From contig JAWACY010000001.1 of NCBI GenBank assembly GCA_038896535.1, positions 355,111-419,110 on the forward strand: a stretch of 64,000 nt of DNA, read 5' to 3'. The notes under the pieces are model-generated. The model had not been told where the DNA came from, did no database searches, and saw only the letters and a program-made list of their open reading frames with translations. A program made the translations under genes and the position numbers. Within the stretch, counting starts at the first letter, position 1, and every line of letters starts with the position of its first letter. The stretch comes from Candidatus Anstonellales archaeon (GTDB lineage Archaea; Micrarchaeota; Micrarchaeia; Anstonellales; J096). This document shows, one piece after another, positions 24,011 through 64,000 of the stretch.

Positions 24011-24288
24011 AAATACCAAGGGAAATAAAAACCAAAAGAAATACAAGCTAAATTAAGCGGAACAAAAGATGAAGAAGGGAAAAATGCATTAAAGATAATA
24101 GTAATAATAAAAGATAAATCTGGGAGAGAAATTCTAGGCCTTAAAAGAGTTCAATGAAAAACTTCAATGAAATACTATATAAAAAGATAAAAAAAGAAAT
24201 TCTTGATGAAAAGGAATTAATAGAAATAATAAAAGCAATTAAAGAATGTGATGCAAAATATATTGAGAAAATTTTCTCTTCTTTGTGA
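24011..24288 (+). pseudogene. Internally deleted, frameshifted remnant of the 33973-34704 gene family
   Basis: Three collinear blocks resemble ~34118-34193, ~34444-34505 and 34628-34704; 24212-24291 is identical to the reverse complement of 63770-63849. Confidence 0.85.
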
Positions 24289-24391
24289 TGTTGTGATTTA
24301 ATTGTGACGTAATTATAAATTATAAATTATAAATATAAAAACAGCATATAAAAATTTAAATAATTAAACCATTACTCTAAGATACATATAT
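24286..24391 (+). repeat. Trailer/promoter cassette of the dispersed repeat family (copy 1)
   Basis: TGATGTTGTGATTTAATTGTGACGTAAT...TATAAAAACAGCATATAAA matches 30746-30833, and its 3' half matches 33923-33969. Confidence 0.85.
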
Positions 24392-24513
24392 AGGCTAACA
24401 GGGACAAACTAGTAAGGAAGGCAAAAAGAACAAAAGAGGCAGCGGGAATAATGCAACAACATAAAATGATAAATGAAGAACAATTAACAAGAGCAGAAGA
24501 TACGCTATTGATA

Positions 24514-25557
24514 TTAACCAATGTTGAGCATTAAACTGCTTACAAATGCTGTTGCAATGAAGAAAATGATATATGCTGTTATCAGCATCAATGGAAAGAA
24601 TCTAAATGCCTGTCTTTTTGTGCCAGTATAAGCTACACTTACAATGAAGCTTGCTATGAAAACGTTTATGAATATTGTTATAATAGAAAACCACAGGAAT
24701 TCCCTTGATGAAAATGGGGGTTTTGATAATGATATATTTATACCTCCAACACTTGTTGTTTGCTGGCCTGAAGTAAATGTAAATGTTTTTTCCAGAGTTT
24801 GTATAAGCATATTTGTAACAGCCAATACTGCAGGCACACCAATAGATGACGCAAAAATAAGAAATATGATAGAAACAAGCAGGCTTGTTCTTATCTCTTT
24901 TTTACTAATGATTATATCTCTCGCCTCATCAGCAGTTTTTTCCAAAACAACAGCAAGCTCACCACCAGATTTTAATGCCTCTTTTATCATGCTTAAAGTC
25001 CTTGATAATATTGGAGAGTTAAACCTTTTGCTTAGATTATCTAACGCTTTGTCCATTGGCGTGCCAGCAAATGCCTCCTTTATGCTTGCTTTAACCTCAA
25101 TAGATAATATGCCAAATTCTGGTTTTGCTGCTTGCCATAATGCCTGCTCTAATGTCATCCCGCCCCTTATATTTGATGAAACTAAAGAAAAAAAGTCTGG
25201 TAAAACAGATTCAACAGCATTTCTTCTCATATCTGATTTAAATACATAATAACCATAGATGAGAGTTGCAATAAAGAAATACAAAACAATGCCGAATATT
25301 GAGTAAATAATGAAGGACAAAACCTGTATTTGTGCTTGTTCTTTTGTAATATCTGATGCTATGCCATAAAATATTTCATTAATTGGCTTGAATAGAAATA
25401 ATAATATGAATAGCATGGCATAAATCAATGTTAAAACAATTGCAATGCCAATGAATGTATCTCCATCTATGCTAGAACCAGATTGTTTTATAAATGAATC
25501 AACATCATTAACAGTTTTTTCAGGCATTAATCTACCTATTGTTTTTAATATCTCCAT
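24514..25557 (-). CDS. Type II secretion system F-domain (TadC-like) pilus platform protein
   Basis: ESVLPDFFSLVSSNIRGGMTLEQAL, FGILSIE, SGGELAVVLE; several TM helices. Confidence 0.88.
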   Translation of the reverse strand: MEILKTIGRLMPEKTVNDVDSFIKQSGSSIDGDTFIGIAIVLTLIYAMLFILLFLFKPINEIFYGIASDITKEQAQIQVLSFIIYSIFGIVLYFFIATLIYGYYVFKSDMRRNAVESVLPDFFSLVSSNIRGGMTLEQALWQAAKPEFGILSIEVKASIKEAFAGTPMDKALDNLSKRFNSPILSRTLSMIKEALKSGGELAVVLEKTADEARDIIISKKEIRTSLLVSIIFLIFASSIGVPAVLAVTNMLIQTLEKTFTFTSGQQTTSVGGINISLSKPPFSSREFLWFSIITIFINVFIASFIVSVAYTGTKRQAFRFFPLMLITAYIIFFIATAFVSSLMLNIG

Positions 25558-25561
25558 AATA

Positions 25562-26425
25562 TCAGTCCATTATTGCATATCTTGGTCTTGTGCTGTCAAC
25601 TGCAGCCAGGAAAAGAAATTGTATAAGAGCCAATACAACAGCCACTCCAAGCAAATAAACAAAAGGCATTGAAAGGCCTGTTTGCGGGGAAAATGATAAA
25701 AATACCATCAAGAATACAATGCCCAAAGCAGGTAGTATAACGCCAATAATAAGATAAAACATGACAAGCGGGTTAAGCTTTTGTCCATATTCCTTTATTT
25801 CAAGAAACTGCTCTTTTGATATCTGATTGACAACGGCATTTAAGCTTGCAGCTATATCAGCTCCTGATACAACAGCATTTGCTAATTGTATTAAAACCCT
25901 TTTTAATGCTGATGATGGCGTTTTTTCTGCAGCATCCCTCAAAACAAATGTTAAAGGCTCTCCTAATGAAACCCTCTCAACAATTCTTTTGAATTCTTTA
26001 CTTACCCTACCATAACCTTTTGTCAATCCAACCATTGCATCAAAAAGCGTTGAACCAGAAGAGAGCGATATTATTAAATGCTTCACTGCAAATACAAGAT
26101 CGTAATCTATTTCTTTCTTTCTCCTCAATAGCAATACATCAACACTATTTATGCTGACGAAATAAAATATTATGAATAAAAATACAAAAAGCACAGAAAA
26201 AACAATAAGCATTAATGATTCTGATGTTATTACTGAATAGCTCCATAAAAAAAGTCCAGCAACAGCACTTATGAATAAAGACATTATAAAAGATACGAAA
26301 ATCACATTATCAAAATACTGCTCTGGTGTAAATACACTTTCTGCAGCAATAAGTTTTTTCCTTAAATCTGGGTAATATGGTAATAAGAGATCAGAAATTT
26401 TTGATATTATTGGCAATCTTATCAT
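25562..26425 (-). CDS. Type II secretion system F-domain (TadB/TadC-like) pilus platform protein
   Basis: SSGSTLFDAM, YGRVSKEF, SGADIAASL, YGQKLNPL; TM helices. Confidence 0.88.
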   Translation of the reverse strand: MIRLPIISKISDLLLPYYPDLRKKLIAAESVFTPEQYFDNVIFVSFIMSLFISAVAGLFLWSYSVITSESLMLIVFSVLFVFLFIIFYFVSINSVDVLLLRRKKEIDYDLVFAVKHLIISLSSGSTLFDAMVGLTKGYGRVSKEFKRIVERVSLGEPLTFVLRDAAEKTPSSALKRVLIQLANAVVSGADIAASLNAVVNQISKEQFLEIKEYGQKLNPLVMFYLIIGVILPALGIVFLMVFLSFSPQTGLSMPFVYLLGVAVVLALIQFLFLAAVDSTRPRYAIMD

Positions 26426-27669
26426 GAAAATGCCTCCTTTGCTTCTTGCTCATTCATGCCCATCTCAATAGCAATAAGCTGTTTTGCTCTTTTGATTGCA
26501 TCTTGTTTTGATATTTCCCCTCTTAAATAGCTGTAAAATACTTTTCTGTCTTTTGCTCCGAGTTCATGCAAAAGCTGTGCCTCTTTCATTGCATTTATCT
26601 TTTCCATTATCTCTTCTCTCTTTGTTTTTTTCTCTTCCACAATTTGCTCTTGCTTTACTTCTTCTGATATAATTTCTTTTTTCTCTTTCGTTTCTTCTAT
26701 AGGCATTGCTACAATTTCTTCCTTTACTTCTTTTTTCTCTTCTTTTTCTTTTGGTTTGTATTCATTTACTAAATTATCTATTGACGAGTAATCTGGCTCT
26801 TTTAATGGAACTTTGATCATTTCTATAATAGCATTGTGCATTGTTTTTAAATAATCCTTATATTCATTTGCTGCTGCCTTTATTGCTTCATAAAGTTCTT
26901 GCTCACTCATATGCTGCTTTTGTTCATTTGCCGCTGCCTTTATTGTATTTACCGCCTTTTCTATATCATTTTTTAACATTGTTTCTATCTGTTTTTCATT
27001 ATCTTCTTTTCCTTTACCCTCTATTAATGCCTTTATTTTCTCTATCTCAGCCTTTATAACAACTCTTTTCTGCTCTTGCTTTTCTTTGAGCAATTCAGTT
27101 GTTAATTGTATTAGCTTAGCAGATAATTGAGATTTTGATAACCCCTCATAACTTGTTTTTAATGTTTCAACTCTTTTATTTGCTTCTTCTAAGGCTTGCT
27201 CCTTTTTCGGTATGCTCAAACCAAGGCCAGGCTTTTCTTTCATATTATCCTTCATATTATCTTTTTTAAATGGCATTTCCTTTTTTAAGTTATCTGTTTC
27301 TATTTTTTCCATCCTTTCTATTTTTTCCGCAACCTTTGCTTCTTCCTTTTGTTCTTTTTTTTGTTCCTTCCCATATTCAGGCTTTTCTGTTTTTGTTTCT
27401 ACTTTCTCTTCCTGAGTTTTTTCTTTTATTTCAGCAATCTTGGCTTCTCTTTGTTGTTTTACATTAGCATATGCAGCCTTTCCATAAGCAGTAATGAGCT
27501 TTTGGCTCTTTTCTATATTCTGATAAATATTTAATAAATCTGCATATAGCAAAACATTAATTTCTTCTTGCACTAAATAAGAGCCTTGCTCTCTTTCCAG
27601 CTTACCGCTTGTTATTTTTGATTCTTTTATGATTTTCAATGCTTCATTAAAATTCATTGAAACACCCAT
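26422..27669 (-). CDS. Charged coiled-coil protein within the pilus assembly operon
   Basis: 415 aa, E/K/Q-rich, overlaps both neighbours. Confidence 0.75.
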   Translation of the reverse strand: MGVSMNFNEALKIIKESKITSGKLEREQGSYLVQEEINVLLYADLLNIYQNIEKSQKLITAYGKAAYANVKQQREAKIAEIKEKTQEEKVETKTEKPEYGKEQKKEQKEEAKVAEKIERMEKIETDNLKKEMPFKKDNMKDNMKEKPGLGLSIPKKEQALEEANKRVETLKTSYEGLSKSQLSAKLIQLTTELLKEKQEQKRVVIKAEIEKIKALIEGKGKEDNEKQIETMLKNDIEKAVNTIKAAANEQKQHMSEQELYEAIKAAANEYKDYLKTMHNAIIEMIKVPLKEPDYSSIDNLVNEYKPKEKEEKKEVKEEIVAMPIEETKEKKEIISEEVKQEQIVEEKKTKREEIMEKINAMKEAQLLHELGAKDRKVFYSYLRGEISKQDAIKRAKQLIAIEMGMNEQEAKEAFS

Positions 27670-29150
27670 TGCTTATCTTTCTCAGCCGCATTTACAACTT
27701 CTTCTGGATAGCTATAATATGTGCTTACTATATGCCCTACTTGGTCTATGTCAAAATATTTCTTATTTACCATCCAATTTAATATTACTGATTTTTCTTG
27801 AATATCTGCTTTTATTTCTTTTTCATTAAGCCCTGCATAAAGCTCAAGTAAATTCGCTATTCTCACAAGATTTCCAGATTTTATTATTGTATCCTTTCCT
27901 GCATCCCATCTGTATATGTTGTTTAATTTTCCATTCTTTAATACTTCTGTAAATTCAAGCGTTCTCCTTAAATTGTATCTTCTATGCCTGAATTGAACAA
28001 CAATGCCTGCAACTGCATCAAGCACTTCATTTGGCAAGCTTATAGGAGGAGTTGTTAATCTTGTTATTGTTTGCTCGCTATTATCAGCGTGTAATGTTGC
28101 ATAGACACTATGTCCAGTATGCATTGCTTCAAACATGACTTCTGCTTCTTTTTGCCTCCTTATTTCTCCTACAATAATTCTATCTGGCCTCATCCTTAAA
28201 GAGTTAACGAGCAAATCAAGCATTGTTACTTCTCCCTTTCCTTCTGGATTTGGTTCTCTTGTTACTAATGGCACCCATTGCAAGTATTTAGGCAATGTTA
28301 ACTCCCTTGTATCTTCAATTGTTATTACTCTCTGATTTGCTGGAATAAAGCCGGCTATTGCATTAAGAAATGAAGTCTTCCCGCTTCCAGTGCCACCAGA
28401 AACTATTAAGGATAGCTCATTCTGTATGCAGAGCCATATCAGTGCCATGACTTCTATGCTTATTGTATCAGATGCTATAAGATTTGTGACAGTCCAAGGA
28501 TTTCTCGAGAATTTTCTTATTGTTAATGTATTGCCATAAGATGATATGGGGAACAATGTGGCATTAACTCTATCCCCAGTTGATATATGTGCGTCAAGCA
28601 ATGGGTTTAAAATATTTATCTGCCTACCAACCTTTCTTGCTATGAATGCAGCATAATTATATATTTCCTCATCATCTTTCATTTTCAAGTTTGTTCTGCA
28701 CCACCCGAATTTTTTGTGATAAACCCATATATTATCATTTGGTCCATTCACGACTATTTCTTCAAGCATCTCGTCAGAAACAAGTATATCAAGATCACCA
28801 AGCCCTATTGTGTGCTGTATTAAATATGTTGCGAGTATTGCCTTTTGCTCTTCTGTTATGTCTGGGAAGCTTTTTTCAAGTATTGCTATTGCCCTATTGT
28901 AAAATTTTTTCTTTATTATTTCTGCTTTTTTTGGATCTAGTATTTCAGATAAATCAACATCAACTCCAACAAGCAAATCTGCTTTTAATTTCGTTTCTAT
29001 AATTGTTTTTGTTCCAACACCTATGCCTGGCACTTTTATATCATATGTTGGTACGAAATCTTTTTTTGTTCTTATTACTGTTGCTTGTACAGGAATATTT
29101 TCGCTATAAAATGTGTATTTTCCCATTAATTGCTCATTTGTATTTGGCAT
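27654..29150 (-). CDS. Type II/IV secretion system ATPase (CpaF/TadA/VirB11-like)
   Basis: Walker A GGTGSGKT, TIEDTREL, LRMRPDRIIVGEIR, AMHTGH..ATLHA. Confidence 0.95.
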   Translation of the reverse strand: MPNTNEQLMGKYTFYSENIPVQATVIRTKKDFVPTYDIKVPGIGVGTKTIIETKLKADLLVGVDVDLSEILDPKKAEIIKKKFYNRAIAILEKSFPDITEEQKAILATYLIQHTIGLGDLDILVSDEMLEEIVVNGPNDNIWVYHKKFGWCRTNLKMKDDEEIYNYAAFIARKVGRQINILNPLLDAHISTGDRVNATLFPISSYGNTLTIRKFSRNPWTVTNLIASDTISIEVMALIWLCIQNELSLIVSGGTGSGKTSFLNAIAGFIPANQRVITIEDTRELTLPKYLQWVPLVTREPNPEGKGEVTMLDLLVNSLRMRPDRIIVGEIRRQKEAEVMFEAMHTGHSVYATLHADNSEQTITRLTTPPISLPNEVLDAVAGIVVQFRHRRYNLRRTLEFTEVLKNGKLNNIYRWDAGKDTIIKSGNLVRIANLLELYAGLNEKEIKADIQEKSVILNWMVNKKYFDIDQVGHIVSTYYSYPEEVVNAAEKDKQWVFQ

Positions 29151-29261
29151 TAAACCACCATATGTTTTTTGATAGTTTTGTTTATAAGCTTTTCTATAGC
29201 TTTCTTATTTCCATATCGGCAATATAAAAAATTTATAAAGCCTTTGTATATATTTTTTTCA

Positions 29262-29954
29262 ATGGTAGATTTGAGCAAGGCAATTATTGGGAGGATAGAA
29301 AAAAACGGGCAGAAGTTTGAGCTTTATTTAGATCCTGACAAGGCATATGAATACTTAGAAGGCAGGAAAAAAGATTTGGCAAACATCCTTGTTGTTGAGG
29401 AAGTTTATAAAGATGCTAAAAAAGGAGAGAAGCATAGCCAGCAAGCATTGAAGCAAGCATTTGGTAGTGATGATGTTTATGTTGTGTTAAAGGAAGTGCT
29501 TGATAAAGGAGAAGTCCAGCTAACAACAGAGCAGAAAAGAAAGATGGCAGAACAAAAGAGGAAGCAGGTTATTGCCTTAATAGCAAGAGAAGTGGTTGAT
29601 GCAAGAACAGGAGCGCCAATCCCTATGCAGAGAATAGAGCTTGCAATGGAACAAGCAAAAGTACATATAGACATGTTTAAAAAACCGGAAGAGCAGATGG
29701 AGGATGTGATAAAGGCTTTAAGGCCAATATTGCCAATGAAAATAGAAAAGGCAAAAATAGCAGTTAAAGTGCCTGCACAATATGCTATGCAAGCATACGG
29801 CATATTGAAATCTTATAATATAGTAAAAGAAGAATGGGCTAATAATGGAGATTTGCTTGTATTGCTAGAAATGCCTGCTGGTCTGCAAACGGAGTTGTAT
29901 GATAAAATAGGAAAATTAACACAAGGACAAGCACAAGTAAAAGTAATAAGATGA
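29262..29954 (+). CDS. Ribosome maturation factor SBDS (Sdo1)
   Basis: GQKFELYLDP, VYKDAKKGEK, GEVQLTTEQKR, RIELAMEQAK; start reassigned to MVDL at 29262. Confidence 0.95.
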   Translation: MVDLSKAIIGRIEKNGQKFELYLDPDKAYEYLEGRKKDLANILVVEEVYKDAKKGEKHSQQALKQAFGSDDVYVVLKEVLDKGEVQLTTEQKRKMAEQKRKQVIALIAREVVDARTGAPIPMQRIELAMEQAKVHIDMFKKPEEQMEDVIKALRPILPMKIEKAKIAVKVPAQYAMQAYGILKSYNIVKEEWANNGDLLVLLEMPAGLQTELYDKIGKLTQGQAQVKVIR

Positions 29955-30037
29955 AAATTAGTATTTTTGATGCAAGCGAACCACATAGCTGCCAATAGCA
30001 TTATAAATTTATGTTTTATATATAATTAGTGATTTCT

Positions 30038-30628
30038 ATGCTATATATCCCTGGAGATGAAATAAAAGAAAAAATAAAGATGCATCCAACAGCAACAAGG
30101 TTAGAAAATGGCAAGATTTATGCAAATGTAATAGGCATGGTCTCTGATAATGTTTTTAAGCCTTTTGAATTGGCATATGTAGCCAATGTTGGAGATTTAA
30201 TTGTTGGTGTTGTTTATGAGAAAAAGCCAAATGTAATATTTGTTGATACGAGCACATCTTATACTGGCCTTGTAATGGCGAAAGCAATAAGAATTGAAAT
30301 AAAGCAAGGAGACATAATATCAGGCAAAGTAAGTAAAATAGAGGAGAGTGATATAATTTTATCAGACATATCCCTTCTCTCTAGCAGGAATGAAATAGGC
30401 ACTTTAATAAGCATTCCACCTTCAAAAGTTGCTAGAATAATAGGCAAAGATGCTACTATGATAAGTCTAATAAAGGAAAAAACATCATGCAAAATAGTAG
30501 TTGGAATGAATGGCTATATTTGGATACAGGGGAAAAATGCTGAAAAAGCAGTTAAAGCAATATTGTTTATAATTAAAAGAGCACATTTACAAGGCCTGAC
30601 TTCAAAAGTAGAACAAATACTTGCTTAA
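30038..30628 (+). CDS. rrp4: Exosome RNA-binding subunit Rrp4
   Basis: IPGD N-terminus, S1 domain (VGDLIVGVV), KH motif PSKVARIIGK, VGMNGYIWI; follows SBDS. Confidence 0.9.
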   Translation: MLYIPGDEIKEKIKMHPTATRLENGKIYANVIGMVSDNVFKPFELAYVANVGDLIVGVVYEKKPNVIFVDTSTSYTGLVMAKAIRIEIKQGDIISGKVSKIEESDIILSDISLLSSRNEIGTLISIPPSKVARIIGKDATMISLIKEKTSCKIVVGMNGYIWIQGKNAEKAVKAILFIIKRAHLQGLTSKVEQILA

Positions 30629-30745
30629 CTGCTTTACTATTTATGTTTTACTCCTTTATTGCTTTACCGCTTTACTGTTTATTGCTTTATTGATTACTTT
30701 CGCTTAAATTTATATTGAGCTTCTATATTCTTTTTTATGTAATTA

Positions 30746-30833
30746 TGATGTTGTGATTTAATTGTGACGTAATCATAAATTATAAATATAAAAACGGCAT
30801 ATAAATAATTAAAAACTCTTACTTGAAAATACA
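30746..30833 (+). repeat. Trailer/promoter cassette of the dispersed repeat family (copy 2, without gene)
   Basis: 5' half matches 24286 onward; 30787-30833 matches 33923-33969 at 46 of 47 nt. Confidence 0.88.
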
Positions 30834-30896
30834 TGTAAGGGGCAATAATGTAAAATAATAAAGGAAAAACGGAAATTTTGGGAATATACATTCTTA

Positions 30897-30970
30897 GGGC
30901 TCTTAGCTCAGACTGGTAGAGCGCTCCCTTGGCATGGGAGAGGCCGGGGGTTCAAATCCCCCAGAGTCCA
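30897..30970 (+). tRNA. tRNA-Ala (anticodon GGC)
   Basis: Acceptor GGGCTCT/AGAGTCC+A with G3:U70, anticodon arm CTCCC-TTGGCAT-GGGAG, GTTCAAATC. Confidence 0.96.
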
Positions 30971-31019
30971 CTAAAAACAAAGCTTGCATTTTTAAACACT
31001 TTTAATAAATATTAAATAC

Positions 31020-32054
31020 ATGTATTTATTGAAATTTTTTAAGACAAGAGAAAAGAAAAAAATATATTCAGATTTTGTATCAAATATAGCAAAAAAGCAC
31101 GGATTAAAATTACAAAATACGGATATAAAGAGAATTGCAAATGCCTTAATTATGTTTGATGATGACAAAGAGATGCTCAAGCAAGTATTGAAAACTATTG
31201 ATATGTTTCTTAAAAGCAAAAAAAGGCAAGCATTAATGTTTTCAATAGATATAATAAAAAGTCCATTATTCTTAGAATTAAAAAAACAAAGGTCAATGTA
31301 TTTATATAATTATATAGAATCTCTTGCTTCAATTAAAGAAGCGCATAATATGACAAATGAGAGTATTTTGGCAATATTATCAAATGAAAGCATTATCTCA
31401 GTTATAAGAGATATTAATAATACAAGTGCTTGTATTGCTATGTTTGAATATTTTATAAATACCTATTATAATGTAAAAAGTATTGATAAACTAGAAGAGA
31501 GAGTTAGGGGGATAAATAGATATAAAATTGGTATTATTAAATTATATGCTGATTTAGTCAAAAGCCATAGATTTAAAGATTTTTCATTTGCAATCCTTGG
31601 GCACGATGAAAATAAAATGAAATTCATTTATAGCCAGTTAGCAAATAATGAAGTATATAAGTTCATAGAATACTTAATTAATATTGATGAAGAAAAGGGA
31701 GCAGAGATATTAAAAGATTTTTATACGCTTATTTACAAGACAACAAATAATGAAAGCATTTATCTATATTCAAATGATCTTGTTAGTTGTTTAAAATGCT
31801 ATAGAGATATAAACATTATTGCTATAATATTAAAAGAGCTTATATCTGCATACGATGTTCATTTTAGATTTAATTCAAGTCCAGCAACGTTGTTAAAAGC
31901 CAGTATAAAAAGGCTTATTGAAGAAAAGAATATTAAAAAAATAAGCCATATTGCTGAGCAGAGAGATGGAAATGAAACATCTTATGCTATTGCCAATACA
32001 TATATTGATATAAAAACTGAAATAAAAAATGTTATATTGGGTAATGATATATAA
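31020..32054 (+). CDS. Hypothetical alpha-helical protein
   Basis: 344-aa I/K/N/Y-rich ORF; no motif recognised. Confidence 0.65.
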   Translation: MYLLKFFKTREKKKIYSDFVSNIAKKHGLKLQNTDIKRIANALIMFDDDKEMLKQVLKTIDMFLKSKKRQALMFSIDIIKSPLFLELKKQRSMYLYNYIESLASIKEAHNMTNESILAILSNESIISVIRDINNTSACIAMFEYFINTYYNVKSIDKLEERVRGINRYKIGIIKLYADLVKSHRFKDFSFAILGHDENKMKFIYSQLANNEVYKFIEYLINIDEEKGAEILKDFYTLIYKTTNNESIYLYSNDLVSCLKCYRDINIIAIILKELISAYDVHFRFNSSPATLLKASIKRLIEEKNIKKISHIAEQRDGNETSYAIANTYIDIKTEIKNVILGNDI

Positions 32055-32079
32055 TAGGAATAAGAAAAGAGGCAGTATA

Positions 32080-32979
32080 ATGAATGCAAAAACATGCGAT
32101 CACTGTAATAATGAAAGCATTGTGCATTTAGCTTATGCAAATAGAAACCTTTGCCAGCAGCACTTTTTTAATTTAATAGAAAAAAGGTTTTCTTTTTGTT
32201 TAAGACAAGAGGGAATGAAACCAAAGCAAAGAGTTGCTGTTGCTTTAAGCGGGGGGAAAGATTCAACAACATTGCTTTATTTATTAAATAAATTAAAAAG
32301 CAAAATACCTATGGACATTTTTGCAATAACAATTGATGAAGGCATTGCAGGATATAGGCCAAAAAGCATAGAAAAAGCAGCGATAATGTGTAAAAAACTT
32401 GGTATTGAGCATCATATAGTAAAGTTCAGTTCAGAAGTTGGCAAATCACTTGATGAAATAATGGAAGATAAAGATGATGAGCCTGCTTGTAGCTATTGCG
32501 GTGTATTCAGGAGATACCTTCTTAATAAAGCAGCTAAAGAGCTTAATGCTGATTTGATTGCTGTTGGTCATAATTTAGATGATACCGCACAGACGATATT
32601 TATGAATTTATTGAGAAACGAACCATCGCGGATTTTGAGATTTTTTAAGCCAATAATAGAACCAGAGGATTTTGTTAGAAGAATAAAGCCTTTGATGTAT
32701 ATTCCAGAAAAGGAGATAGCTATATATGCAATATTGAAAGGGCTTGAGTTTGATGATGGGGAGTGCCCATATGCGATGAGGAGTATAAGATATTACATAA
32801 GAGATATGATAAATAAACTTGAAGACAAAAAACCTGGGGCAAAGTTTCAGATAGTTAAAAGCATGCTTTCATTATTATATGAAAAAGAACAGAATAATGA
32901 GATAAAGAAATGTAAAGTATGCAAAATGCCAACAAATAGCGAAACTTGCATGTTCTGTCATTTAAAGAGTATTATTTAA
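32080..32979 (+). CDS. tRNA 2-thiolation protein, TtuA/Ncs6 (TIGR00269-like) family
   Basis: N-terminal CxxC..CxxH, PP-loop SGGKDS, CSYCGVFRR, GHNLDD, ECPYA, C-terminal CxxC..CxxC. Confidence 0.92.
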   Translation: MNAKTCDHCNNESIVHLAYANRNLCQQHFFNLIEKRFSFCLRQEGMKPKQRVAVALSGGKDSTTLLYLLNKLKSKIPMDIFAITIDEGIAGYRPKSIEKAAIMCKKLGIEHHIVKFSSEVGKSLDEIMEDKDDEPACSYCGVFRRYLLNKAAKELNADLIAVGHNLDDTAQTIFMNLLRNEPSRILRFFKPIIEPEDFVRRIKPLMYIPEKEIAIYAILKGLEFDDGECPYAMRSIRYYIRDMINKLEDKKPGAKFQIVKSMLSLLYEKEQNNEIKKCKVCKMPTNSETCMFCHLKSII

Positions 32980-33007
32980 AAAATCTTTTAGCAGTTTTTT
33001 ATTCATT

Positions 33008-33080
33008 GCTCCGGTCGTCTAGTGGTCAAGGATACTGGCCTTTCACGCCAGAGACCCGGGTTCGAATCCCGGCCGGAGCA
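33008..33080 (+). tRNA. tRNA-Glu (anticodon TTC)
   Basis: Acceptor GCTCCGG/CCGGAGC+A, anticodon arm CTGGC-CTTTCAC-GCCAG, GTTCGAATC. Confidence 0.96.
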
Positions 33081-33082
33081 TA

Positions 33083-33676
33083 TTATTTGCCTAAAACTTT
33101 TATCCCATTATCACTTGCCACAATGACATTTCCATCTTTGAATGTACAGTATTCAAATATTGACTCGATATTATTGCTTATTGTTTTTATTCTCCAGCTT
33201 TTGTTAAAGTCTACCTGCTTCCAAAATAGAGCATCAAGTTCAAAAAATTTTATATCCATTTTCTCATCTGCAGGATGAAAAACAAATACCTTTAATTTGG
33301 GTGCCCTATCAAGCTTATTCGCCATCTCAAGTTCTTTTTCATCAATAATGCCATTTATTATATAACCATTTGCAAGCATTACGCTAAAAGTGCCTGGCAT
33401 TGGAAATGCTTTTATTTGTTCACTGCTATTTATTGTTTTTTTGCTTTCATTATTTTGTTCTTTTACAAGAATATATATTGGACAATTTATCATATCTTGA
33501 AAATGTTGTTCTTTTTCCTGTACTTTTTTGTATTCATGAAATTCTAAATTCTCATTTATCCTAGATACCAAAGGCTCAAAATGTATAAATATAGGCATCA
33601 AAGCCGGCAAAATAAAAGTTTTAACAAATTTTTCTTTTTTCATCCCCATTCCCCAATAAAATAATTTTATAAGCAT
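33083..33676 (-). CDS. Hypothetical protein with N-terminal hydrophobic segment
   Basis: 197-aa ORF convergent on tRNA-Glu. Confidence 0.6.
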   Translation of the reverse strand: MLIKLFYWGMGMKKEKFVKTFILPALMPIFIHFEPLVSRINENLEFHEYKKVQEKEQHFQDMINCPIYILVKEQNNESKKTINSSEQIKAFPMPGTFSVMLANGYIINGIIDEKELEMANKLDRAPKLKVFVFHPADEKMDIKFFELDALFWKQVDFNKSWRIKTISNNIESIFEYCTFKDGNVIVASDNGIKVLGK

Positions 33677-33922
33677 TTAAAAATATTTATGTATTAATAA
33701 TGAATGTTAAAAATGATTTAAAAATGATAGTTAGTTATAATAGTTAGTTTGTATTAATAAGACATAAGTTGTTATCCTGTCCAAATAATTGCCAATAATC
33801 TTTTCAAATAAGATATAAATGATCTGGAAGATGAAGGTTTATTTAAGATTTAAGCATTTCTGACAGCAGCCAATTATTAAATAATTACAATGAATAGAAA
33901 CTGATGAAAAGAAAGTAAAAAT

Positions 33923-33969
33923 TATAAAAACAGCATATAAATAATTAAAAACTCTTACTTGAAAATACA
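33923..33969 (+). promoter_or_regulatory. Repeated promoter cassette (A-rich BRE-like plus TATAAATA) of the repeat-family gene
   Basis: TATAAATA about 30 nt before the ATG at 33973; near-identical copy at 30787-30833. Confidence 0.7.
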
Positions 33970-33972
33970 CAT

Positions 33973-34704
33973 ATGAGCCAACAAAAACAGAATACTGAAG
34001 AACAAACAAGACCGAAGAAAGTTAGAGTATGGCAACGACTAATAAAAGCAACAAAAGAAATAAAAGAAAGGTTAAGATTAAGAAGAGCAGAAATTATAAT
34101 AAAACAAAACAAAGATAAAATACCAAGGGAAATACAAGCCAAATTAATAGGGACACAAAACGAAGAAGAGAAAAACACATTAAAGATAATAGTTGCTAAT
34201 ATTTTGACAAAAATTAATAATGATTATACAAGAGAAGAGGCATTCGAAGCTCTTAACTCCATCTTACAAAACCCCAATTTCAAATCAGAATGGCTAACCG
34301 CAGAATTAGGGGAAAAAATCTCATCAATAGCAAATACAATAATAAAAAATACACCAGAACAATCAACAAGATGGGCATTTAAAGCTCTTAATTCCCTCTT
34401 ACAAAACCCCAATTTCACCCCCAAATTTATACCACTAATTGAAATAATGATAAAAGGTAAAAAAGGCCCAGAAATTCAAAAAACCTTAGAAAAGTTCAAT
34501 GAAATTATAAAAGAAGAAAAATCAATAGTATTATTACAAGATCTAGCCAATAAAGATGAAAAGATAATAAATGAAGCTGTTGCAATTATGCTTAACCCTG
34601 TTTTCTTTAATAATCTTCCTGATAAAGAGGAATTAATAGAAATAATAAAAGCAATTAAAAAATGTGATGCAAAATATATTGAGGAAATTTTCTCTTCTTT
34701 GTGA
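33973..34704 (+). CDS. Multicopy-family protein with 45-aa helical (HEAT-like) repeats
   Basis: AFEALNSILQNPNF and AFKALNSLLQNPNF 45 aa apart; paralogous DNA at 24011-24288 and 63773-64000. Confidence 0.8.
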   Translation: MSQQKQNTEEQTRPKKVRVWQRLIKATKEIKERLRLRRAEIIIKQNKDKIPREIQAKLIGTQNEEEKNTLKIIVANILTKINNDYTREEAFEALNSILQNPNFKSEWLTAELGEKISSIANTIIKNTPEQSTRWAFKALNSLLQNPNFTPKFIPLIEIMIKGKKGPEIQKTLEKFNEIIKEEKSIVLLQDLANKDEKIINEAVAIMLNPVFFNNLPDKEELIEIIKAIKKCDAKYIEEIFSSL

Positions 34705-34822
34705 TTCTGAATTTTAATTTACCCATTACACATTATTACACATTTAATGTCTTAGAATTTAGCTTGCATTATGGCTTGCATTAAATGATAAGTATTAATA
34801 ATAGTTTTACCACATTAAATAA

Positions 34823-35434
34823 ATGGAATCATTAAAGGCCATGGTTGAATATTTAAAAGATGCTGGCTTTTTAACCAAGCCAGATGTTGAGCTAGCCTTT
34901 TTATCTGTTGATAGAGCCTTTTTTGTCCCTGATCAATACAAAGATTATGCTTATGCTGATATAGCAATCCCAATAAAAGAGAATGTAACAATATCCGCCC
35001 CTTCTGTAATAGCCAGAACAATAGAGCTAAGCGAGATAAAAATTGGGAGCAATGTATTGGAGATAGGCACTGGCTCTGGCTATAGCACTGCTTTAATAAA
35101 ACACATAATAAAAGATGGCTTGCTTTATTCTGTTGAAATAGATAGCTTGGCATATGAATATGCTAAAAGAAAATTGGAAAAACTTGGCCTTGCTGATGAA
35201 ATAAAGCTATTCAATGCAGATGGAAAAAATATATTTTTTAAAGAAAGCATGTTTGATGCAATTATATTGCATGCCTCATTCAATAGAATATATGAAAATT
35301 GGAAAAGGCAGTTAAAAGAGCATGCTTGCATTGTTGGGCCTTATGAAAAAGAACCTTTTTACCAATTTCTTGTTAAATATAAAGATGGAAATCTTATATT
35401 TGACATTCCTGTTTTATATGTGCCATTAATATAG
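34823..35434 (+). CDS. pcm: Protein-L-isoaspartate O-methyltransferase
   Basis: VDRAFFVP, AYAD, TISAP, VLEIGTGSGY SAM-binding motif. Confidence 0.9.
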   Translation: MESLKAMVEYLKDAGFLTKPDVELAFLSVDRAFFVPDQYKDYAYADIAIPIKENVTISAPSVIARTIELSEIKIGSNVLEIGTGSGYSTALIKHIIKDGLLYSVEIDSLAYEYAKRKLEKLGLADEIKLFNADGKNIFFKESMFDAIILHASFNRIYENWKRQLKEHACIVGPYEKEPFYQFLVKYKDGNLIFDIPVLYVPLI

Positions 35435-35496
35435 TGCTATAAAGTCATCGCTATTCATTTGGTATGATTTTTAAATTTTACTTCATTTATTTATAT

Positions 35497-36402
35497 ATGT
35501 TAATGTGGTTTAACAATAAACTTATAGATGAAAAAGATTTTTCTATACATCCTTTAAGCCATAGCCTGCATTATGGTGATGCTGCATTCGAAGGCTTGAG
35601 GGCTTATAATTTGGGTAATAAAAAAACTGGGATTTTTAGAATAAGAGAACATGCCAACAGGCTTGTTTACAGCAGTTCTGTATTGATGGGGAAAAAAGTG
35701 CTTACAGTTGAGGAAGTAGAGAAGGGCATCATAGAAACAATAAGGGGGAATAAGATAAGTGAAGCTTATATAAGGCCAATATTTTTTCTTGGAAATGGGA
35801 CAATTGGTATAAACAATCTTGATAAAAACCAGAGGTTTTTTGCTGTTATGGCCTTGCCTTTTCCTCCATTCCTCGATAAAAATAAAGCGATAAGGGTTTT
35901 GATATCAAGTTATAGAAAAACGCCTAGCATATGCCAGCCAGCAAATGCAAAGATATCTGCTAATTATGTTAACAGCATCCTAGCAAGCAGAGAAGCAAGA
36001 ATTTCTGGTTATGATGAAGCGCTTTTATTAAATATACATAATAGAATAGCGGAGGGCCCTGGAGAGAATATATTCATAGTAAAAAATGAGAAACTATTTA
36101 CCCCACCATTAGATGAAGATTTATTAGAAGGCATAACAAGGGATAGCATAATTAAATTGGCAGAGCATATGGGCATTGAGGTTATAGAAAAACCTATAAG
36201 CATTGCTGAATTATTGAATGCAGATGAAGCATTTTTTACTGGAACTGCTGCTGAAGTTGTTGGCATAGGAGAAGTTTCTGGTTATAAAATAGGGGACGGG
36301 AATATTGGGGGCATAACAAAAAAATTGCAATCATTATATGAGAAAGCAACAAAAGGAAAAATAAAGGCATTTAGACATTGGGTAAAAGAAGTTAAGCTTT
36401 AG
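35497..36402 (+). CDS. ilvE: Branched-chain amino acid aminotransferase
   Basis: LHYGDAAFEGLRAY, AKISANYVNS, GYDEALLL, EGPGENIF, LEGITR, FFTGTAAEV. Confidence 0.95.
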   Translation: MLMWFNNKLIDEKDFSIHPLSHSLHYGDAAFEGLRAYNLGNKKTGIFRIREHANRLVYSSSVLMGKKVLTVEEVEKGIIETIRGNKISEAYIRPIFFLGNGTIGINNLDKNQRFFAVMALPFPPFLDKNKAIRVLISSYRKTPSICQPANAKISANYVNSILASREARISGYDEALLLNIHNRIAEGPGENIFIVKNEKLFTPPLDEDLLEGITRDSIIKLAEHMGIEVIEKPISIAELLNADEAFFTGTAAEVVGIGEVSGYKIGDGNIGGITKKLQSLYEKATKGKIKAFRHWVKEVKL

Positions 36403-40343: not shown

Positions 40344-41486
40344 ATGGAGGCTGTTGCAGAGGGCGATAAAAGCTCGAATATCGATGGCCCGCCTTTTGCT
40401 TTAGTTAGAAAAATTAGCGAAAGTTCTGCTGGGCCTTTAAATTTAAATTCAGAAAACAGAGGGTTTGCTGTCAATATAATTAATGCTAATGAAAATGCTG
40501 ATAGGGCATTAAGTAGCAAACAAAATATTAAAAGAATTTTTCTAAATGCTGATCCTTTAACTGATGAACTTGATTTTGATAGTCCTGATAAAGATGTTCC
40601 TGATAAAGATGTTGATGAAGGAGATGGGGAAGATAATGATAATGAAGAGCCCCCAGTTATTTTAGATGAAGAATACTTAGCTGAATTATTAGAAGAGCTA
40701 TTCTTATCTGCATTTTGTGGAGAAGATGATGCTGAAATTGATGGAGTTGATGATAAATATGAGGGGGAAGATGAATTTAAAGATGCAGAAGATAGCAAAG
40801 AAAATGAAATTGAAACATTGAATGGGGGAGAAGAAAATGAAGGAGAGGGATTAACCCATAGTTCAGAAGAAGTTGATGAGGGAGAAAATGTGGACAATGA
40901 AGAATTTGATGAAGGAGAAAATGAAGAGGAAGAAATTAATAGTGTTGAAACAAATACTGAAGAGGGCTTGGATGAAAAAGATGAAACAAGCATCGAAATT
41001 AATGATGGAGAAAGCGAAGTTGATGAAGATGATAAAGATAGCATAGAAAATGAAGTAATTAGAGATTCTGAAGAAAAAATTGAAGAAGAAATTGAAGAAG
41101 ATGGATTAGGTAATACTGATGCTGAGAACGATGAAGGAAAAAATGAAGAAGGGGAAGATGAAAAAATAGAAGATGAAAATGTTGAAGAAGATAATGCTAG
41201 CATTGAGGGAGTTGATGATAAATATGAGGGAGAAGATGAATTTAAAGATGCAGAAGATAGCAAAGAAAATGAAATTGAAACATTGAATGAGGGAGAAGAA
41301 AATGAAGGAGAGGGATTAACCCATAGTTCAGAAGAAGTTGATGAGGGAGAAAATGATAATGAATTTGATAATGAATTATTTGATATTAGCAATAACGAAA
41401 ATGAAATTGAATTTGATTTAACAAGTAATGAGCAAGTTGAAGATCAAGGAATTGATTCACATTTTGAAGATGACTTATCTGATTAA
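40344..41486 (+). CDS. Extremely acidic, probably disordered protein with an internal duplication
   Basis: 380 aa dominated by D/E/N/G; GGAGG upstream; GAA/GAT codon bias consistent with a real gene. Confidence 0.75.
   Translation: MEAVAEGDKSSNIDGPPFALVRKISESSAGPLNLNSENRGFAVNIINANENADRALSSKQNIKRIFLNADPLTDELDFDSPDKDVPDKDVDEGDGEDNDNEEPPVILDEEYLAELLEELFLSAFCGEDDAEIDGVDDKYEGEDEFKDAEDSKENEIETLNGGEENEGEGLTHSSEEVDEGENVDNEEFDEGENEEEEINSVETNTEEGLDEKDETSIEINDGESEVDEDDKDSIENEVIRDSEEKIEEEIEEDGLGNTDAENDEGKNEEGEDEKIEDENVEEDNASIEGVDDKYEGEDEFKDAEDSKENEIETLNEGEENEGEGLTHSSEEVDEGENDNEFDNELFDISNNENEIEFDLTSNEQVEDQGIDSHFEDDLSD
40743..41355 (+). repeat. 148-bp in-frame direct repeat (40743-40890 and 41208-41355)
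   Basis: Near-identical copies 465 bp apart encoding GVDDKYEGEDEFKDAEDSKENEIETLN.GEENEGEGLTHSSEEVDEGEN. Confidence 0.92.
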
Positions 41487-59190: not shown

Positions 59191-59236
59191 AGAAAAAATT
59201 CACAAAACCTTTTTTAAAATAATGCATAATTTATTT

Positions 59237-59746: not shown

Positions 59747-59838
59747 TTTTGCCTCTTACTTAAGCAATATTTATAAAATTTCACAAAATAACGAAAAAAG
59801 CAACATTTTTAAATAGTTCCATAAATATAATAATATCA

Positions 59839-61177: not shown

Positions 61178-61198
61178 GGCTCTCTACAAAAAATCCAT

Positions 61199-61639
61199 TC
61201 AATAATCTTGGGGGAGACTGCTACCTTGCCAGTCTTTATTTATAAAGAAATAAGCTTTTCTTCCTGCAAAGCCTTTTTTTAAAACTCCAATTCTGCATAA
61301 ATTATTAAGCCTTGCAGAAGCAGCATTCCTTCCTTTGTAATTCAGCAATGCCTTTATCTCTTCTGCTGTTGCTTTGCCCTTTTGCTCTATTATATTAATA
61401 ATCTTTTCATCAACTTCTGATAAAAGATTTATTGGTTCATTACTTCCTGCTGTTTTTGTTTCTAATAATTCTATTTTTCTTATAAGTGTTTTCATAAGCC
61501 TATTATTATCTTCAACCTGCTTTGCCAATTCATATATTGCCAGAGCAAGTTCTATGCTCTTATCTACATTTTTTTGTTCTTTTAATTTCTGCTCAATCTT
61601 TTGCTCTTTATTTTCTTTATCAATAAAATCCTCTTCCAT
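61199..61639 (-). CDS. Coiled-coil plus winged-helix DNA-binding protein
   Basis: N-terminal heptads; LSEVDEKIINII..KGKATAEEI..LLNYKGRNAASARLNNL...GVLKK...GRKAYF. Confidence 0.75.
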   Translation of the reverse strand: MEEDFIDKENKEQKIEQKLKEQKNVDKSIELALAIYELAKQVEDNNRLMKTLIRKIELLETKTAGSNEPINLLSEVDEKIINIIEQKGKATAEEIKALLNYKGRNAASARLNNLCRIGVLKKGFAGRKAYFFINKDWQGSSLPQDY

Positions 61640-61648
61640 TTTTATCAT

Positions 61649-61703
61649 CAGAGTCATGATGTTCATGTGATATGTCATGACTCTGTCATGATTTTAGCAT
61701 GAT
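61649..61703. promoter_or_regulatory. Array of five CATG-core palindromic sites with an 11-bp inverted repeat; candidate operator
   Basis: CATG at 61655, 61664, 61676, 61687, 61698; CAGAGTCATGA (61649-59) / TCATGACTCTG (61675-85); lies between a TATA-like element and the wHTH start. Confidence 0.55.
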
Positions 61704-61752
61704 ATATTTTTAAATGTTACTGTTTTTTGTTTGCATTTTTAATTTCTTATGT

Positions 61753-61890
61753 TTAATCAGTGCTGACCTCTCTTGCTATTGCTGTTTTTTCCTTAAATAT
61801 AATTTTTGCTCCTGAATAAGGAAGGTTATATTCTTTTAAATTCTCAATTTCTGTTTGTTCTCCTATGGGCCATATTCTGTATTTTGGCAT
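61753..61890 (-). CDS. rpoP: DNA-directed RNA polymerase subunit Rpo12 (RpoP), cysteine-free; absent from ORF track
   Basis: MPKYRIWPIGEQTEIENLKEYNLPYSGAKIIFKEKTAIAREVSTD (45 aa), GAGGGAG upstream, directly after rpl37ae as in the conserved operon. Confidence 0.8.
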   Translation of the reverse strand: MPKYRIWPIGEQTEIENLKEYNLPYSGAKIIFKEKTAIAREVSTD

Positions 61891-61898
61891 ATTCTCCC

Positions 61899-62141
61899 TC
61901 ATATTTTATTATTCTTTATTTCAGCAAGCATTCTTTTTGCTGTTTCACCAGCTTCTGTTAGTGGCTTATAAGCCCCGCCAGCAACTTTTGTTTTGCATGA
62001 TTTGCATATAAATATTGCAAACCCGCTCCTCTTCAATTTTCTTTTTTCGCACTTTGGGCATATATAAAGTTTTTTTGCTGCTTCTTGCATTTCTTTATAA
62101 AGCTTCCTTATCTTTCTCCCATATTTTGGTGTTCTCAGCAT
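61899..62141 (-). CDS. rpl37ae: Ribosomal protein eL43 (L37Ae)
   Basis: KYGRKIRK, CPKC..CKSC zinc finger, AGGAY. Confidence 0.93.
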   Translation of the reverse strand: MLRTPKYGRKIRKLYKEMQEAAKKLYICPKCEKRKLKRSGFAIFICKSCKTKVAGGAYKPLTEAGETAKRMLAEIKNNKI

Positions 62142-62158
62142 TTTTCCACCCTAATCAA

Positions 62159-62959
62159 TTAATCAATCAAATATTTATTTAATTCTTTTGCATGTTTAAA
62201 AGCAAGATCAATAATATTTAGCACATCAGATTTTTTAAAACTGCCTGTTCCCCTTTTTTGCAATGAACAAACATAATTATTTGTTGTACTAACTATTAAT
62301 TGAGCATCGCTTGCTATATCCTCTTCATAGCTTGGGTCTAAAAGCAAGTAATCGTCAAGCTTGGAAAATGTATTGCTGACTGGCAAAGGATTTTTTAATG
62401 GCAATTTTCCAGCTATTTCATTTCTTATTATTTTTCCTTCTTCAACTTTTGGCAATCTGCAATGCTTTAATGCAAAAGAAGCTGCGAGCAGAGCAGGATC
62501 AAAAAGATTTCCTCCATAATCTATTACATATAAATCAATAAAAACGCCAAAAACCTTCCCCTCTTCTATAAAAAGCTTTTCCATATCAATGCATTCGCTG
62601 CTTCTTATAGCTCTATCAACAACTCTTGAAAATTCTATACTATTCTCATCAGGTGGGCCAGGCTCAAACTTTGCACTTGCTAAAGGCAAAAGTTCTGCAT
62701 TTGTTATTAAAGCCCCTCTGTTTGGCTCTTCTGGAAATGGTTCAACAACTTCAAGCTTTATGCCTGCAATAACCTGTGTTGAACCTATGCTTACTATTGC
62801 TGATCCTTCTGCATTGGGGATAACATTTGGTTTTGCTTCTATTTCTCTATATTCCATAAATGTTCTGCCGTCAAGCCTTTTTCCATGCTTGAGGAATTGC
62901 CCGAGAAATTCCTTTTTTTGCTTTGTTATTATCGACTGCTTACTCATTTTATCCCTCAT
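62159..62959 (-). CDS. rrp42: Exosome subunit Rrp42
   Basis: GKRLDGR, AEGSA, FEPGPPDENSIE, RVVDRAIR, DYGGNLFD. Confidence 0.95.
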   Translation of the reverse strand: MRDKMSKQSIITKQKKEFLGQFLKHGKRLDGRTFMEYREIEAKPNVIPNAEGSAIVSIGSTQVIAGIKLEVVEPFPEEPNRGALITNAELLPLASAKFEPGPPDENSIEFSRVVDRAIRSSECIDMEKLFIEEGKVFGVFIDLYVIDYGGNLFDPALLAASFALKHCRLPKVEEGKIIRNEIAGKLPLKNPLPVSNTFSKLDDYLLLDPSYEEDIASDAQLIVSTTNNYVCSLQKRGTGSFKKSDVLNIIDLAFKHAKELNKYLID

Positions 62960-63696
62960 AATTTTAATTTCTTCTCCATCTCTTTTGTATATGCCTCTTC
63001 TATAGCTTTTCTTTGTTCTTCAAAAAGTTTTTGTGCGCCTTGCCAGGTATAATCAAGGAGCTTTTCTATTTCATCTCTTTTAAGCAAGCCATCTGCTTGC
63101 AAAAGCACTATATCTCCATTCTTTGTATAACCAACTGGCATGTCTGCTTGGCCATAATTATCTTCCTCTTTTCCCAAATCAAGCACAAGCTGTCCATCAA
63201 CTTTGCCTGCTGATATGGCTGCTAAAGGCATTTTTACAGGAATACCGGCATTCATTAAAGCAAGACAAGCCGCTGTTAAAGAAGCTACTCTTGTTCCACC
63301 TTCTGCCTGTAATACTATAATATAAACATCTATTATAGTATTTGGAAATTTCTCTGTTAATGTTATATTTTCTAACGCTTCTCTTATCACTTTACTTATT
63401 TCTATGCTCCTTCTGTTTGGTCCCATCCTACCATGCTCTTCGAGACTTGCAAAAGTGCTCATGCTATAAATACATCTAAGGGTTGCTTTATGCATATCAG
63501 CAAGATGCTTTGGCAAAGCTTCTTTAGGCCCAAAAACACCTGCAAGTATTTTATTTTTTCCCCATTCTATATAAGCTGAGCCGTCAGCTTCTTCAAGAAC
63601 ACCTACCTTCATTGATATGTTACGCAACTGCAAATAGTCCCTTCCATCGATCCTTTTTCCATCAATTATTAATTTAATATCCTTTTTTACTCCCAT
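62956..63696 (-). CDS. rrp41: Exosome subunit Rrp41 (RNase PH family)
   Basis: RIDGR, ADGSAYIEWG, GPNRRSIEISK, QAEGGTR, EEDNYGQADMP. Confidence 0.95.
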   Translation of the reverse strand: MGVKKDIKLIIDGKRIDGRDYLQLRNISMKVGVLEEADGSAYIEWGKNKILAGVFGPKEALPKHLADMHKATLRCIYSMSTFASLEEHGRMGPNRRSIEISKVIREALENITLTEKFPNTIIDVYIIVLQAEGGTRVASLTAACLALMNAGIPVKMPLAAISAGKVDGQLVLDLGKEEDNYGQADMPVGYTKNGDIVLLQADGLLKRDEIEKLLDYTWQGAQKLFEEQRKAIEEAYTKEMEKKLKL

Positions 63697-63772
63697 TTTA
63701 TCTCTCTTTTTTAATTTCTTTTTTGCATTTATTCATAAATCTTTATACAAAGGTTTTTTAATTATTTATACA

Positions 63773-64000
63773 TCACAAAGAAGAGAAAATTTTCTCAATA
63801 TATTTTGCATCACATTCTTTAATTGCTTTTATTATTTCTATTAATTCCTCTTTATCAGGAAGATTATTAAAGAAAACATGGCTAAGCATAATTGCAACAG
63901 CTTCATTTATTATCTTTTCATCTTTATTGGCTAGATCTTGTAATAATACTATTGATTTTTCTTCTTTTATAATTTCATTGAACTTTTCTAAGGTTTTTTG
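63773..64000 (-). CDS. 3' end of a near-identical paralog of the 33973-34704 gene (continues beyond window)
   Basis: Reverse complement matches 34477-34704 at 224 of 228 nt. Confidence 0.88.
   Translation of the reverse strand, partial: QKTLEKFNEIIKEEKSIVLLQDLANKDEKIINEAVAIMLSHVFFNNLPDKEELIEIIKAIKECDAKYIEKIFSSL

Follow-up and report, generated by a model that had tools for sequence, protein, structure and literature searches.

How did pieces of one gene, nearly identical over part of their length, come to lie at four places within 40 kb of the genome of a Candidatus Anstonellales archaeon, some of them exactly where conserved genes have been parted? We addressed this question in a 64,000-nt stretch of contig JAWACY010000001.1 (C1:355111-419110, hereafter the window) of assembly GCA_038896535.1. 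An interpretation made from the letters of the window, which we call the sequence-only reading, had suggested either an undescribed mobile element or a multigene family whose recombination reshapes the chromosome. On balance, we favor a form of the latter, in which a lineage-specific family of paralogous genes, derived from a tandem array, would have been reshuffled by homologous recombination without being an autonomous mobile element.

Seven loci and the exchange of sequence between them

We searched the assembly (751,790 bp in five contigs, C1 to C5, with ~32% G+C and a completeness of 91%) with BLASTN and TBLASTN and found seven loci of the family, four in the window (a to d) and three beyond it (C1:324026, C1:338005-338546 and C5:4538-4904), plus one distant paralogue on C2 (P0005, 728 aa), which has two repeats in common with the family. 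The parts of these loci are as follows, in window coordinates unless a contig is named:

23984-24430: whole homology of locus a, comprising a gene remnant, a trailer (T), a promoter-like block (P) and a 5' remnant
23984-24288, plus strand: gene remnant of a, 5'-truncated and frameshifted, with a terminal 44-aa open reading frame (ORF) at 24154-24288 (P0035)
24286-24330, plus strand: T of a
24331-24430, plus strand: P of a and the 5' remnant of a second family gene, its start codon mutated to ATA
30711-30845 (end approximate), plus strand: locus b, with the last ~35 nt of a family coding sequence (CDS), T, P and the start of a 5' remnant
33913-33972, plus strand: P of locus c, with TATAAATA at 33936-33943, ~33 nt before the ATG
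33973-34704, plus strand: intact gene of c (P0001, 243 aa), within an overall homology of 33913-34719
63773-64000, minus strand: CDS 3' end of locus d, the last 75 codons and stop of a 364-aa gene with five repeats
63745-63770, minus strand: P fragment of d, directly after the stop, including a 16-nt piece at 63755-63770, then rrp41
C1:324026-324150: locus x, P and a 5' remnant
C1:338005-338546: locus a2, a remnant
C5:4538-4904, minus strand: the C5 remnant

The genome-wide count is therefore larger than the four loci of the sequence-only reading, all of which do exist at or close to the positions given there, although the homology at a is wider. Its descriptions of c as a promoter block with an intact 243-aa gene, and of d as a gene 3' end on the minus strand before rrp41, agree with ours, with the addition that the gene at d continues on C3. 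Its view of b as trailer and promoter only was right as to the presence of T and P but missed the CDS end.

The loci have no shared ends, since the homology stops at a different point in every one of them and the flanks are unique. What a, a2, b and the C5 remnant have in common is a core made up of a family CDS end, the trailer T (…GTTGTGATTTAATTGTGACGTAAT…), the AT-rich block P with TATAAATA, and the first codons of another family gene, and this T-P core has the look of a junction between two head-to-tail units. A 16-mer of P, TATAAATAATTAAAAA, occurs in the whole genome at four family loci only (a2, b, c and d), and the P and 5'-remnant part of a (its local positions 509-580) matches positions 76-150 of x. 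Judging from archaeal promoter geometry, with the TATA center ~33 nt before the ATG at c, P is a putative promoter that would there give a nearly leaderless mRNA. Behind the P of a2, an unrelated 214-aa gene has its ATG at the exact position of the family ATG, and this gene seems to have captured a family promoter together with the first codons; it lies at C1:338550-339191 and belongs to no Pfam family. A search of window positions 23000-36000 against Rfam returned two tRNAs only, and a sigma-70 promoter scan is not relevant to archaea.

The window reaches the end of C1, where the contig end cuts copy d. The last 65 nt of C1 are identical to the first 65 nt of C3, and reading d across this join gives an uninterrupted 364-aa gene, with its C3 part at C3:66-932. 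A 364-aa protein from a 9,089-nt contig of another assembly (P0046) is identical to this joined translation, so that the C1-C3 join is independently supported. The longest exact stretch common to c and d is 174 nt, and this repeat halted the assembler, which accounts for the contig break at d. On the other hand, the longest exact match of b to any other copy is 37 nt, and that of a is at most 80 nt.

Identity between the copies is segmental. The c/d pair (34477-34705 and 63772-64000), which is inverted and 29 kb apart, was found by the repeat search as 229 nt at 98.25% identity (about 225/229), and the a/d pair (24200-24291 and 63770-63861) as 92 nt at 97%, including a run of 80/80 exact matches; for both pairs the identities quoted in the sequence-only reading hold. 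The a/b trailer pair (24283-24327 and 30743-30787), quoted there as 46/47, is 96% identical over 45 nt, and the b/c pair (30777-30848 and 33913-33984) is 85% identical over 72 nt. Along c and d, identity is ~50% over the first 120 nt and ~90% over the following 180 nt; in the final 480 nt, the first 195 nt are 83% identical (34 differences), whereas the last 285 nt contain 4 differences (98.6%). For the c/d pair, dN/dS is 0.33 in the 5' block and reaches ~0.7 in the repeats; the changes counted in the last 285 nt (5 nonsynonymous, 0 synonymous) are too few to interpret. The number of repeats also differs, with two in c and five in d.

The nearest relative of a copy changes along its length as well. 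The 5' and middle parts of a are nearest to a2 (101/117, or 86%, and 83/100), its 3' CDS is nearest to d (86/89, with 80 nt exact, versus 67/88 to a2), and its trailer matches b in 41/42 positions and a2 in 40/43, so that locus a reads as a mosaic of three different paralogues. Likewise, the C5 remnant follows c at 95% identity for 109 nt and thereafter matches a2 at 88-90%. The copies are thus dispersed, with segmental and incongruent identity, in which near-identical tracts of 80-285 nt are set in copies that are otherwise 50-90% identical. Since near-identity is confined to short tracts in old, divergent copies, it points to gene conversion, not recent spread; of the recent spread or homogenisation proposed by the sequence-only reading, the homogenisation is borne out and the spread is not supported.

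Two proteins from other assemblies, P0045 on a contig of 3.1 kb and P0048 on one of 12.1 kb, add alleles to this picture. P0045 equals P0001 except that all four C-terminal differences (positions 208, 209, 230 and 238) are of the d type, and it could be a hybrid with a c-type 5' part and a d-type 3' end, either by real conversion or as the product of a c x d crossover. In P0048, the 44-aa ORF of an (a)-like allele runs from 24285 straight into the codons at 24395, with 109 nt of T and P missing. The genome encodes a homologous recombination protein, RadA (PF08423, at C1:196949-197665, 307.8 bits), and the c/d pair remains a substrate for further flipping.

Two interrupted gene pairs

Family DNA lies at two places where genes that are neighbors in relatives have been separated in this genome. 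The features concerned are:

29169-30628, plus strand: SBDS and rrp4 (SBDS domains, KH_6), the first half of an SBDS-rrp4-rrp41-rrp42 operon
30897-30971, plus strand: tRNA-Ala(GGC), downstream of b
62159-63696, minus strand: rrp41 and rrp42 (RNase_PH domains), the second half of that operon, inverted
23317-23859, minus strand: pilin-like gene, with a class III signal peptide at its N-terminus as read by eye
24514-25557, minus strand: T2SSF (TadC/FlaJ-like) pilus membrane gene (PF00482, 50.7 bits), upstream of the gap

Among 40 relatives of the same taxonomic order, rrp4 is followed by an adjacent rrp41 on the same contig and strand in 39 of the 39 with both genes, the remaining genome (G030) having matched neither; the spacing between the matched stretches is 13-331 nt (coordinates read by eye). 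In all five relatives that we inspected closely, three from the same genus and two from the same family, SBDS-rrp4-rrp41-rrp42 are contiguous. The passages of PMC2806925 that describe the archaeal exosome superoperon give the order rrp4-rrp41-rrp42, which is the order in the relatives here, whereas in this genome the superoperon is cut between rrp4 and rrp41, which lie on opposite strands, 32.3 kb apart. Both breakpoints are marked by the family, as b (plus strand) begins 82 nt after rrp4 at the left breakpoint, and d (minus strand) and its P fragment lie within ~60 nt before rrp41 at the right one. The two copies are mutually inverted, which is the orientation required for recombination between inverted repeats, and they overlap in content, each containing a CDS 3' end and the P 16-mer.

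The second interruption is in the pilus locus. The spacing between the T2SSF gene and the pilin-like gene is 9-13 nt in 5/5 relatives versus 654 nt here, and this 654-nt gap contains remnant a, on the strand opposite to both genes.

On the far side of the inverted segment, gene order around a TtuA/NcsA-like PP-loop gene is too shuffled among relatives to be of use; a weak hint comes from a same-genus genome (G003), in which a homologue of C3:4349-5065 lies two genes from the PP-loop gene. GC and AT skew along C1 showed no replication-type pattern and are uninformative on the inversion.

The encoded protein and other features of the genome

P0001, the product of c, has a basic N-terminus, two ~45-aa helical repeats and a C-terminal domain, and its repeats are encoded by a 135-nt direct repeat at 34195-34282 and 34330-34417. 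By eye, its sequence shows neither a signal peptide nor a membrane helix. Its AlphaFold model is all-helical (pLDDT 72.1, pTM 0.58), and Foldseek found nothing in the PDB at E <= 0.001, the top rows being designed helical repeats and TAL effectors. Searches of P0001 against Pfam, PHROGs and NCBIfam returned no significant match, and the ESM Atlas gave nothing usable. The possibility that the gene is a fragment of a known IS-family gene, which the sequence-only reading had raised against itself, was thereby checked and found no support in these sources.

A HMMER search against 1.84 billion representative sequences matched 38 proteins at E <= 0.001, ranging from short fragments to ~1,450 aa with up to 13 matched stretches, and all but a few matched through the repeats alone. 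No more than three proteins reached 1e-30, namely P0001, the C3 part of d and one further protein, and a word-indexed search matched only P0001 itself and the C3 copy. One of the 17 relatives that were scanned (P0004) passes the cut-offs of HEAT_ULK4 (30.7 versus 27 bits) and Arm_2 (24.2 versus 20.4), whereas P0001 is below them. As part of the account that we favor on balance, the predicted product is all-helical: a basic N-terminal tail is followed by two to five ~45-aa repeats, which may be HEAT-like, and by a small C-terminal domain. Four relatives of the repeat domain are named, three being hypothetical proteins of Candidatus Micrarchaeota assemblies and one being labelled Methanobacteriota. 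A similar small gene, broken over two contig ends, is present in the same-genus genome G003, which indicates that the family predates this species; its neighbors there map to C2 of the present genome, far from any family locus. Among the papers listed on synteny, rearrangement, repeats, inversion and recombination in Micrarchaeota, none deals with such a family.

The remaining observations concern the surroundings of the loci and the ends of the contigs. Between b and c there are two ORFs, 31020-32054 (plus strand, 344 aa) and 33083-33676 (minus strand, 197 aa), neither of which belongs to a Pfam family. A PD-(D/E)XK nuclease gene (C2:104181-104870) lies ~1.4 kb upstream of the distant C2 paralogue. 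End overlaps or near-repeats link C5:16347-16821 and C2:1-118 with C1:126358-127439, C4:24868-26097 with C1:20-1252, and the end of C3 with the start of C5; the arrangement of contig ends suggests a circular order C1-C3-C5-C2-C4, with every break at a repeat. A 65-nt tandem array (2.1 copies, window 7269-7407) stands just after tRNA-Leu (7179-7264); its repeat family, which is unrelated to the helical-repeat gene, forms many arrays over C1 and C2 and also occurs at C2 and C4 contig ends. One coding region at window 40588-41363 contains a direct duplication of 173 nt (95% identity, with 465 nt between the copies) as well as shorter acidic repeats rich in GAT/GAA.

Origin of the dispersed copies and comparison with known systems

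In the account that we favor, the family would have originated as a head-to-tail array of units, each consisting of P, gene and T, and because of this origin a, a2, b and the C5 remnant would be centered on the succession gene 3' end, T, P and next gene 5' end. The array would then have been scattered and eroded within about 150 kb. The copies go on exchanging sequence by gene conversion, and they stand at both ends of a ~33-kb segment whose inversion parted rrp4 from rrp41-rrp42. Both the exchanges and the inversion may be the work of the homologous recombination of the cell itself, since the genome encodes RadA and our searches turned up no site-specific recombinase. A fragment could reach a new site without a transposase if an illegitimate inversion first disrupted the array and the copies, inverted by this event, then recombined and restored the orientation of the segment. 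The remaining P fragments may now drive transcription of rrp41-rrp42, of the 214-aa gene after a2 and possibly of tRNA-Ala. The recombining multigene family of the sequence-only reading is supported by the mosaic identities, the putative hybrid P0045 and the copies at both rrp4-rrp41 breakpoints.

Several points weigh against this account. Copy d retains only 16-25 nt of P and is without T, and because of this the point of a b x d exchange cannot be rebuilt; d may have lost its T at a later stage, or the course of events was more complicated. An inversion between c and d, as an alternative or additional step, would place rrp41 behind c on the rrp4 strand but 4.1 kb from rrp4. Same-genus relatives share only ~50-66% protein identity with this genome, a divergence that leaves no empty site to compare at the nucleotide level and does not reveal the order of events. 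Four of the five remnants are centered on T-P, which random decay does not predict. The route of a into the pilus operon is one that we infer, and the promoter role proposed for P is drawn from sequence geometry. In addition, the genome is a metagenome assembly in five contigs, and P0045 may reflect a switch made by the assembler within the 174-nt exact repeat, in which case no such allele exists.

A mobile element of a known kind finds little in this genome to build on. The sequence-only reading had noticed no transposase, integrase, reverse transcriptase (RT), terminal inverted repeat (TIR) or target-site duplication (TSD), and domain searches of the 91%-complete assembly together with a repeat check at a bear this out. 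The assembly has no match to Phage_integrase (PF00589), which matched in 14/14 control genomes, nor to the TnpB Zn-ribbon (PF07282; 8/14), DDE_Tnp_1 (PF01609; 9/14) or RVT_1 (3/14); tyrosine recombinases were thus not found in the assembly, while serine recombinases were not searched genome-wide. The same PF00589 result means that no XerA-type resolvase is recognizable in the genome. None of 38 flanking proteins matched a transposase family, and around a there is no TIR or TSD, nor any flanking direct or inverted repeat that brackets the locus. We accordingly rejected an insertion sequence (IS) or transposon, for which there is no PF01609 or PF07282 match in the genome, no transposase match among the neighbors and no significant Pfam, PHROG or NCBIfam match of P0001; an IS or miniature inverted-repeat transposable element (MITE), as the extent of homology differs per locus, with no constant termini and no repeats bracketing a; a retro-copied gene, as RVT_1 is missing and the fragments hold the intergenic T and the next promoter block P, i.e. 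genomic DNA and not mRNA; and, as far as tyrosine recombinases are concerned, a site-specific recombination cassette, whether integron-like or based on integrase-driven inversion, as PF00589 has no match in the assembly.

We consider unlikely a cassette that consists of gene-T-P or T-P and is inserted by an unrecognized enzyme or by one supplied in trans, whether of viral, plasmid or host origin or from a family outside the models used. It would explain why family DNA sits in two tight junctions (T2SSF-pilin in 5/5 and rrp4-rrp41 in 39/39 relatives), why the architecture of remnant a2 recurs at a, 41 kb away, and why T-P is present or absent between strains at the (a)-like locus of P0048, and an assembly only 91% complete could lack the gene for such an enzyme. 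However, the copies have neither common termini nor TIRs or TSDs; no integrase, TnpB, DDE transposase or RT was recognized in the assembly, and no transposase among the 38 neighboring proteins; and the divergence outside the short tracts, where the copies are 78-90% identical, indicates that there was no recent burst. The loci are also clustered, not scattered: a span of 148.8 kb, out of 751.8 kb in total, covers all seven (simulated P ~4e-4) when the chain C1-C3-C5 is taken from exact end overlaps, and the six C1 loci alone give P ~2e-4. Outside the genome, 24 pattern matches in viral contigs included no relatives of the family, and three DNA patterns (T, P and the 3' CDS) had no match in two public contig collections, one of genome contigs and one of metagenome contigs. 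With no common ends, TIR or TSD, with clustered fragments of differing extent, and with no candidate enzyme in the assembly, the undescribed mobile element of the sequence-only reading is not supported.

The copies might instead mark the inversion and the insertion and not cause them, if a dispensable tandem array were simply a tolerated site for unrelated illegitimate breaks. The fragments are indeed array junctions in clustered loci, the 16-25 nt of P at d offer very little homology for RadA, and gene order in the genus is much shuffled anyway. On the other hand, one break predicts complementary end pieces, whereas b and d overlap in content; ongoing exchange between the copies is shown independently; and family DNA is found at both operon interruptions. 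We therefore regard this explanation as improbable. Far less credible is an assembly artefact, in which repeats would have given chimeric joins and the split operon or some copies would be unreal. Although a contig break does fall inside the c/d repeat, the exact sharing is small (at most 37 nt for b and 80 nt for a), and the copies are divergent with unique sequences; the assembler broke off at the 174-nt exact repeat without forcing a path through it; and P0046 from another assembly equals the C1-C3 join. In addition, six hot-spring metagenome runs from two studies contain 72-99% of the sampled words of window 25001-35000, which is not junction-level evidence; one of these runs may be the source of this DNA.

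Two bolder ideas, which we hold to be doubtful, concern what the family might do. It could be a working sequence-variation system of an episymbiotic archaeon, in which two expressed genes (c and d) would draw on silent fragments (a, a2, b and the C5 remnant) by gene conversion while a 29-33-kb segment flips, so that the repeat number and the C-terminal end of a host-interaction protein would change and promoters would be rewired. Such a system would be an archaeal counterpart of the MgPar or pilS cassettes described below. Alternatively, the T-P fragments may have spread through circles excised from the tandem array, which would amount to gene dispersal without a transposase.

Returning to homologous recombination between paralogues, the account that we favor, its significance lies in the kind of genome concerned. 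DPANN genomes are very reduced, and this assembly is without a recognizable transposase, integrase or RT, yet two operons, a pilus operon and rrp4-rrp41-rrp42, which is among the most conserved in archaea, are cut beside copies of one orphan family. It would seem that even a genome of 0.75 Mb can be restructured by ordinary homologous recombination between lineage-specific paralogues, through which essential genes may acquire promoters. The finding also accounts for a contig break, flags a site where strains of the organism differ, and draws attention to a helical-repeat domain family that is uncharacterized, all named relatives being hypothetical proteins of archaeal metagenome assemblies, mostly of Candidatus Micrarchaeota.

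Several known systems resemble the family in part. Insertion sequences and MITEs likewise occur in multiple copies, mark rearrangement breakpoints, interrupt operons and possibly donate promoters, but the family described here has no transposase, TIRs, target duplication or constant ends. The Rhs elements of Escherichia coli ("rearrangement hot spots") are dispersed repeated genes without a transposase that provide homology for rearrangements and include displaced partial 3' fragments. The likeness is in full genes accompanied by partial fragments, dispersed without a transposase and offering homology for rearrangement; however, Rhs genes encode large YD-repeat toxins accompanied by immunity genes, whereas here the product is a 243-364-aa helical-repeat archaeal protein and the fragments carry the promoter of the next gene. 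In the MgPa repeats (MgPar) of Mycoplasma genitalium and the pilS cassettes of Neisseria, partial copies surround one or two expressed genes and undergo segmental conversion. The likeness extends to a very small host-dependent genome, truncated scattered copies, short conversion tracts and strain-variable mosaic alleles, but MgPar and pilS vary surface adhesins or pilins, whereas no export or membrane signal is evident by eye in P0001. In Thermococcales, according to the passages of PMC5495485 on this subject, large inversions between short identical stretches are made by the plasmid-borne pTN3 tyrosine recombinase; the likeness is in large archaeal inversions at short identity, and the difference is that our assembly contains no Phage_integrase match. 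Non-allelic recombination between dispersed paralogues is a known process; new here are the gene family, the lineage in which it occurs and the break in the exosome operon.

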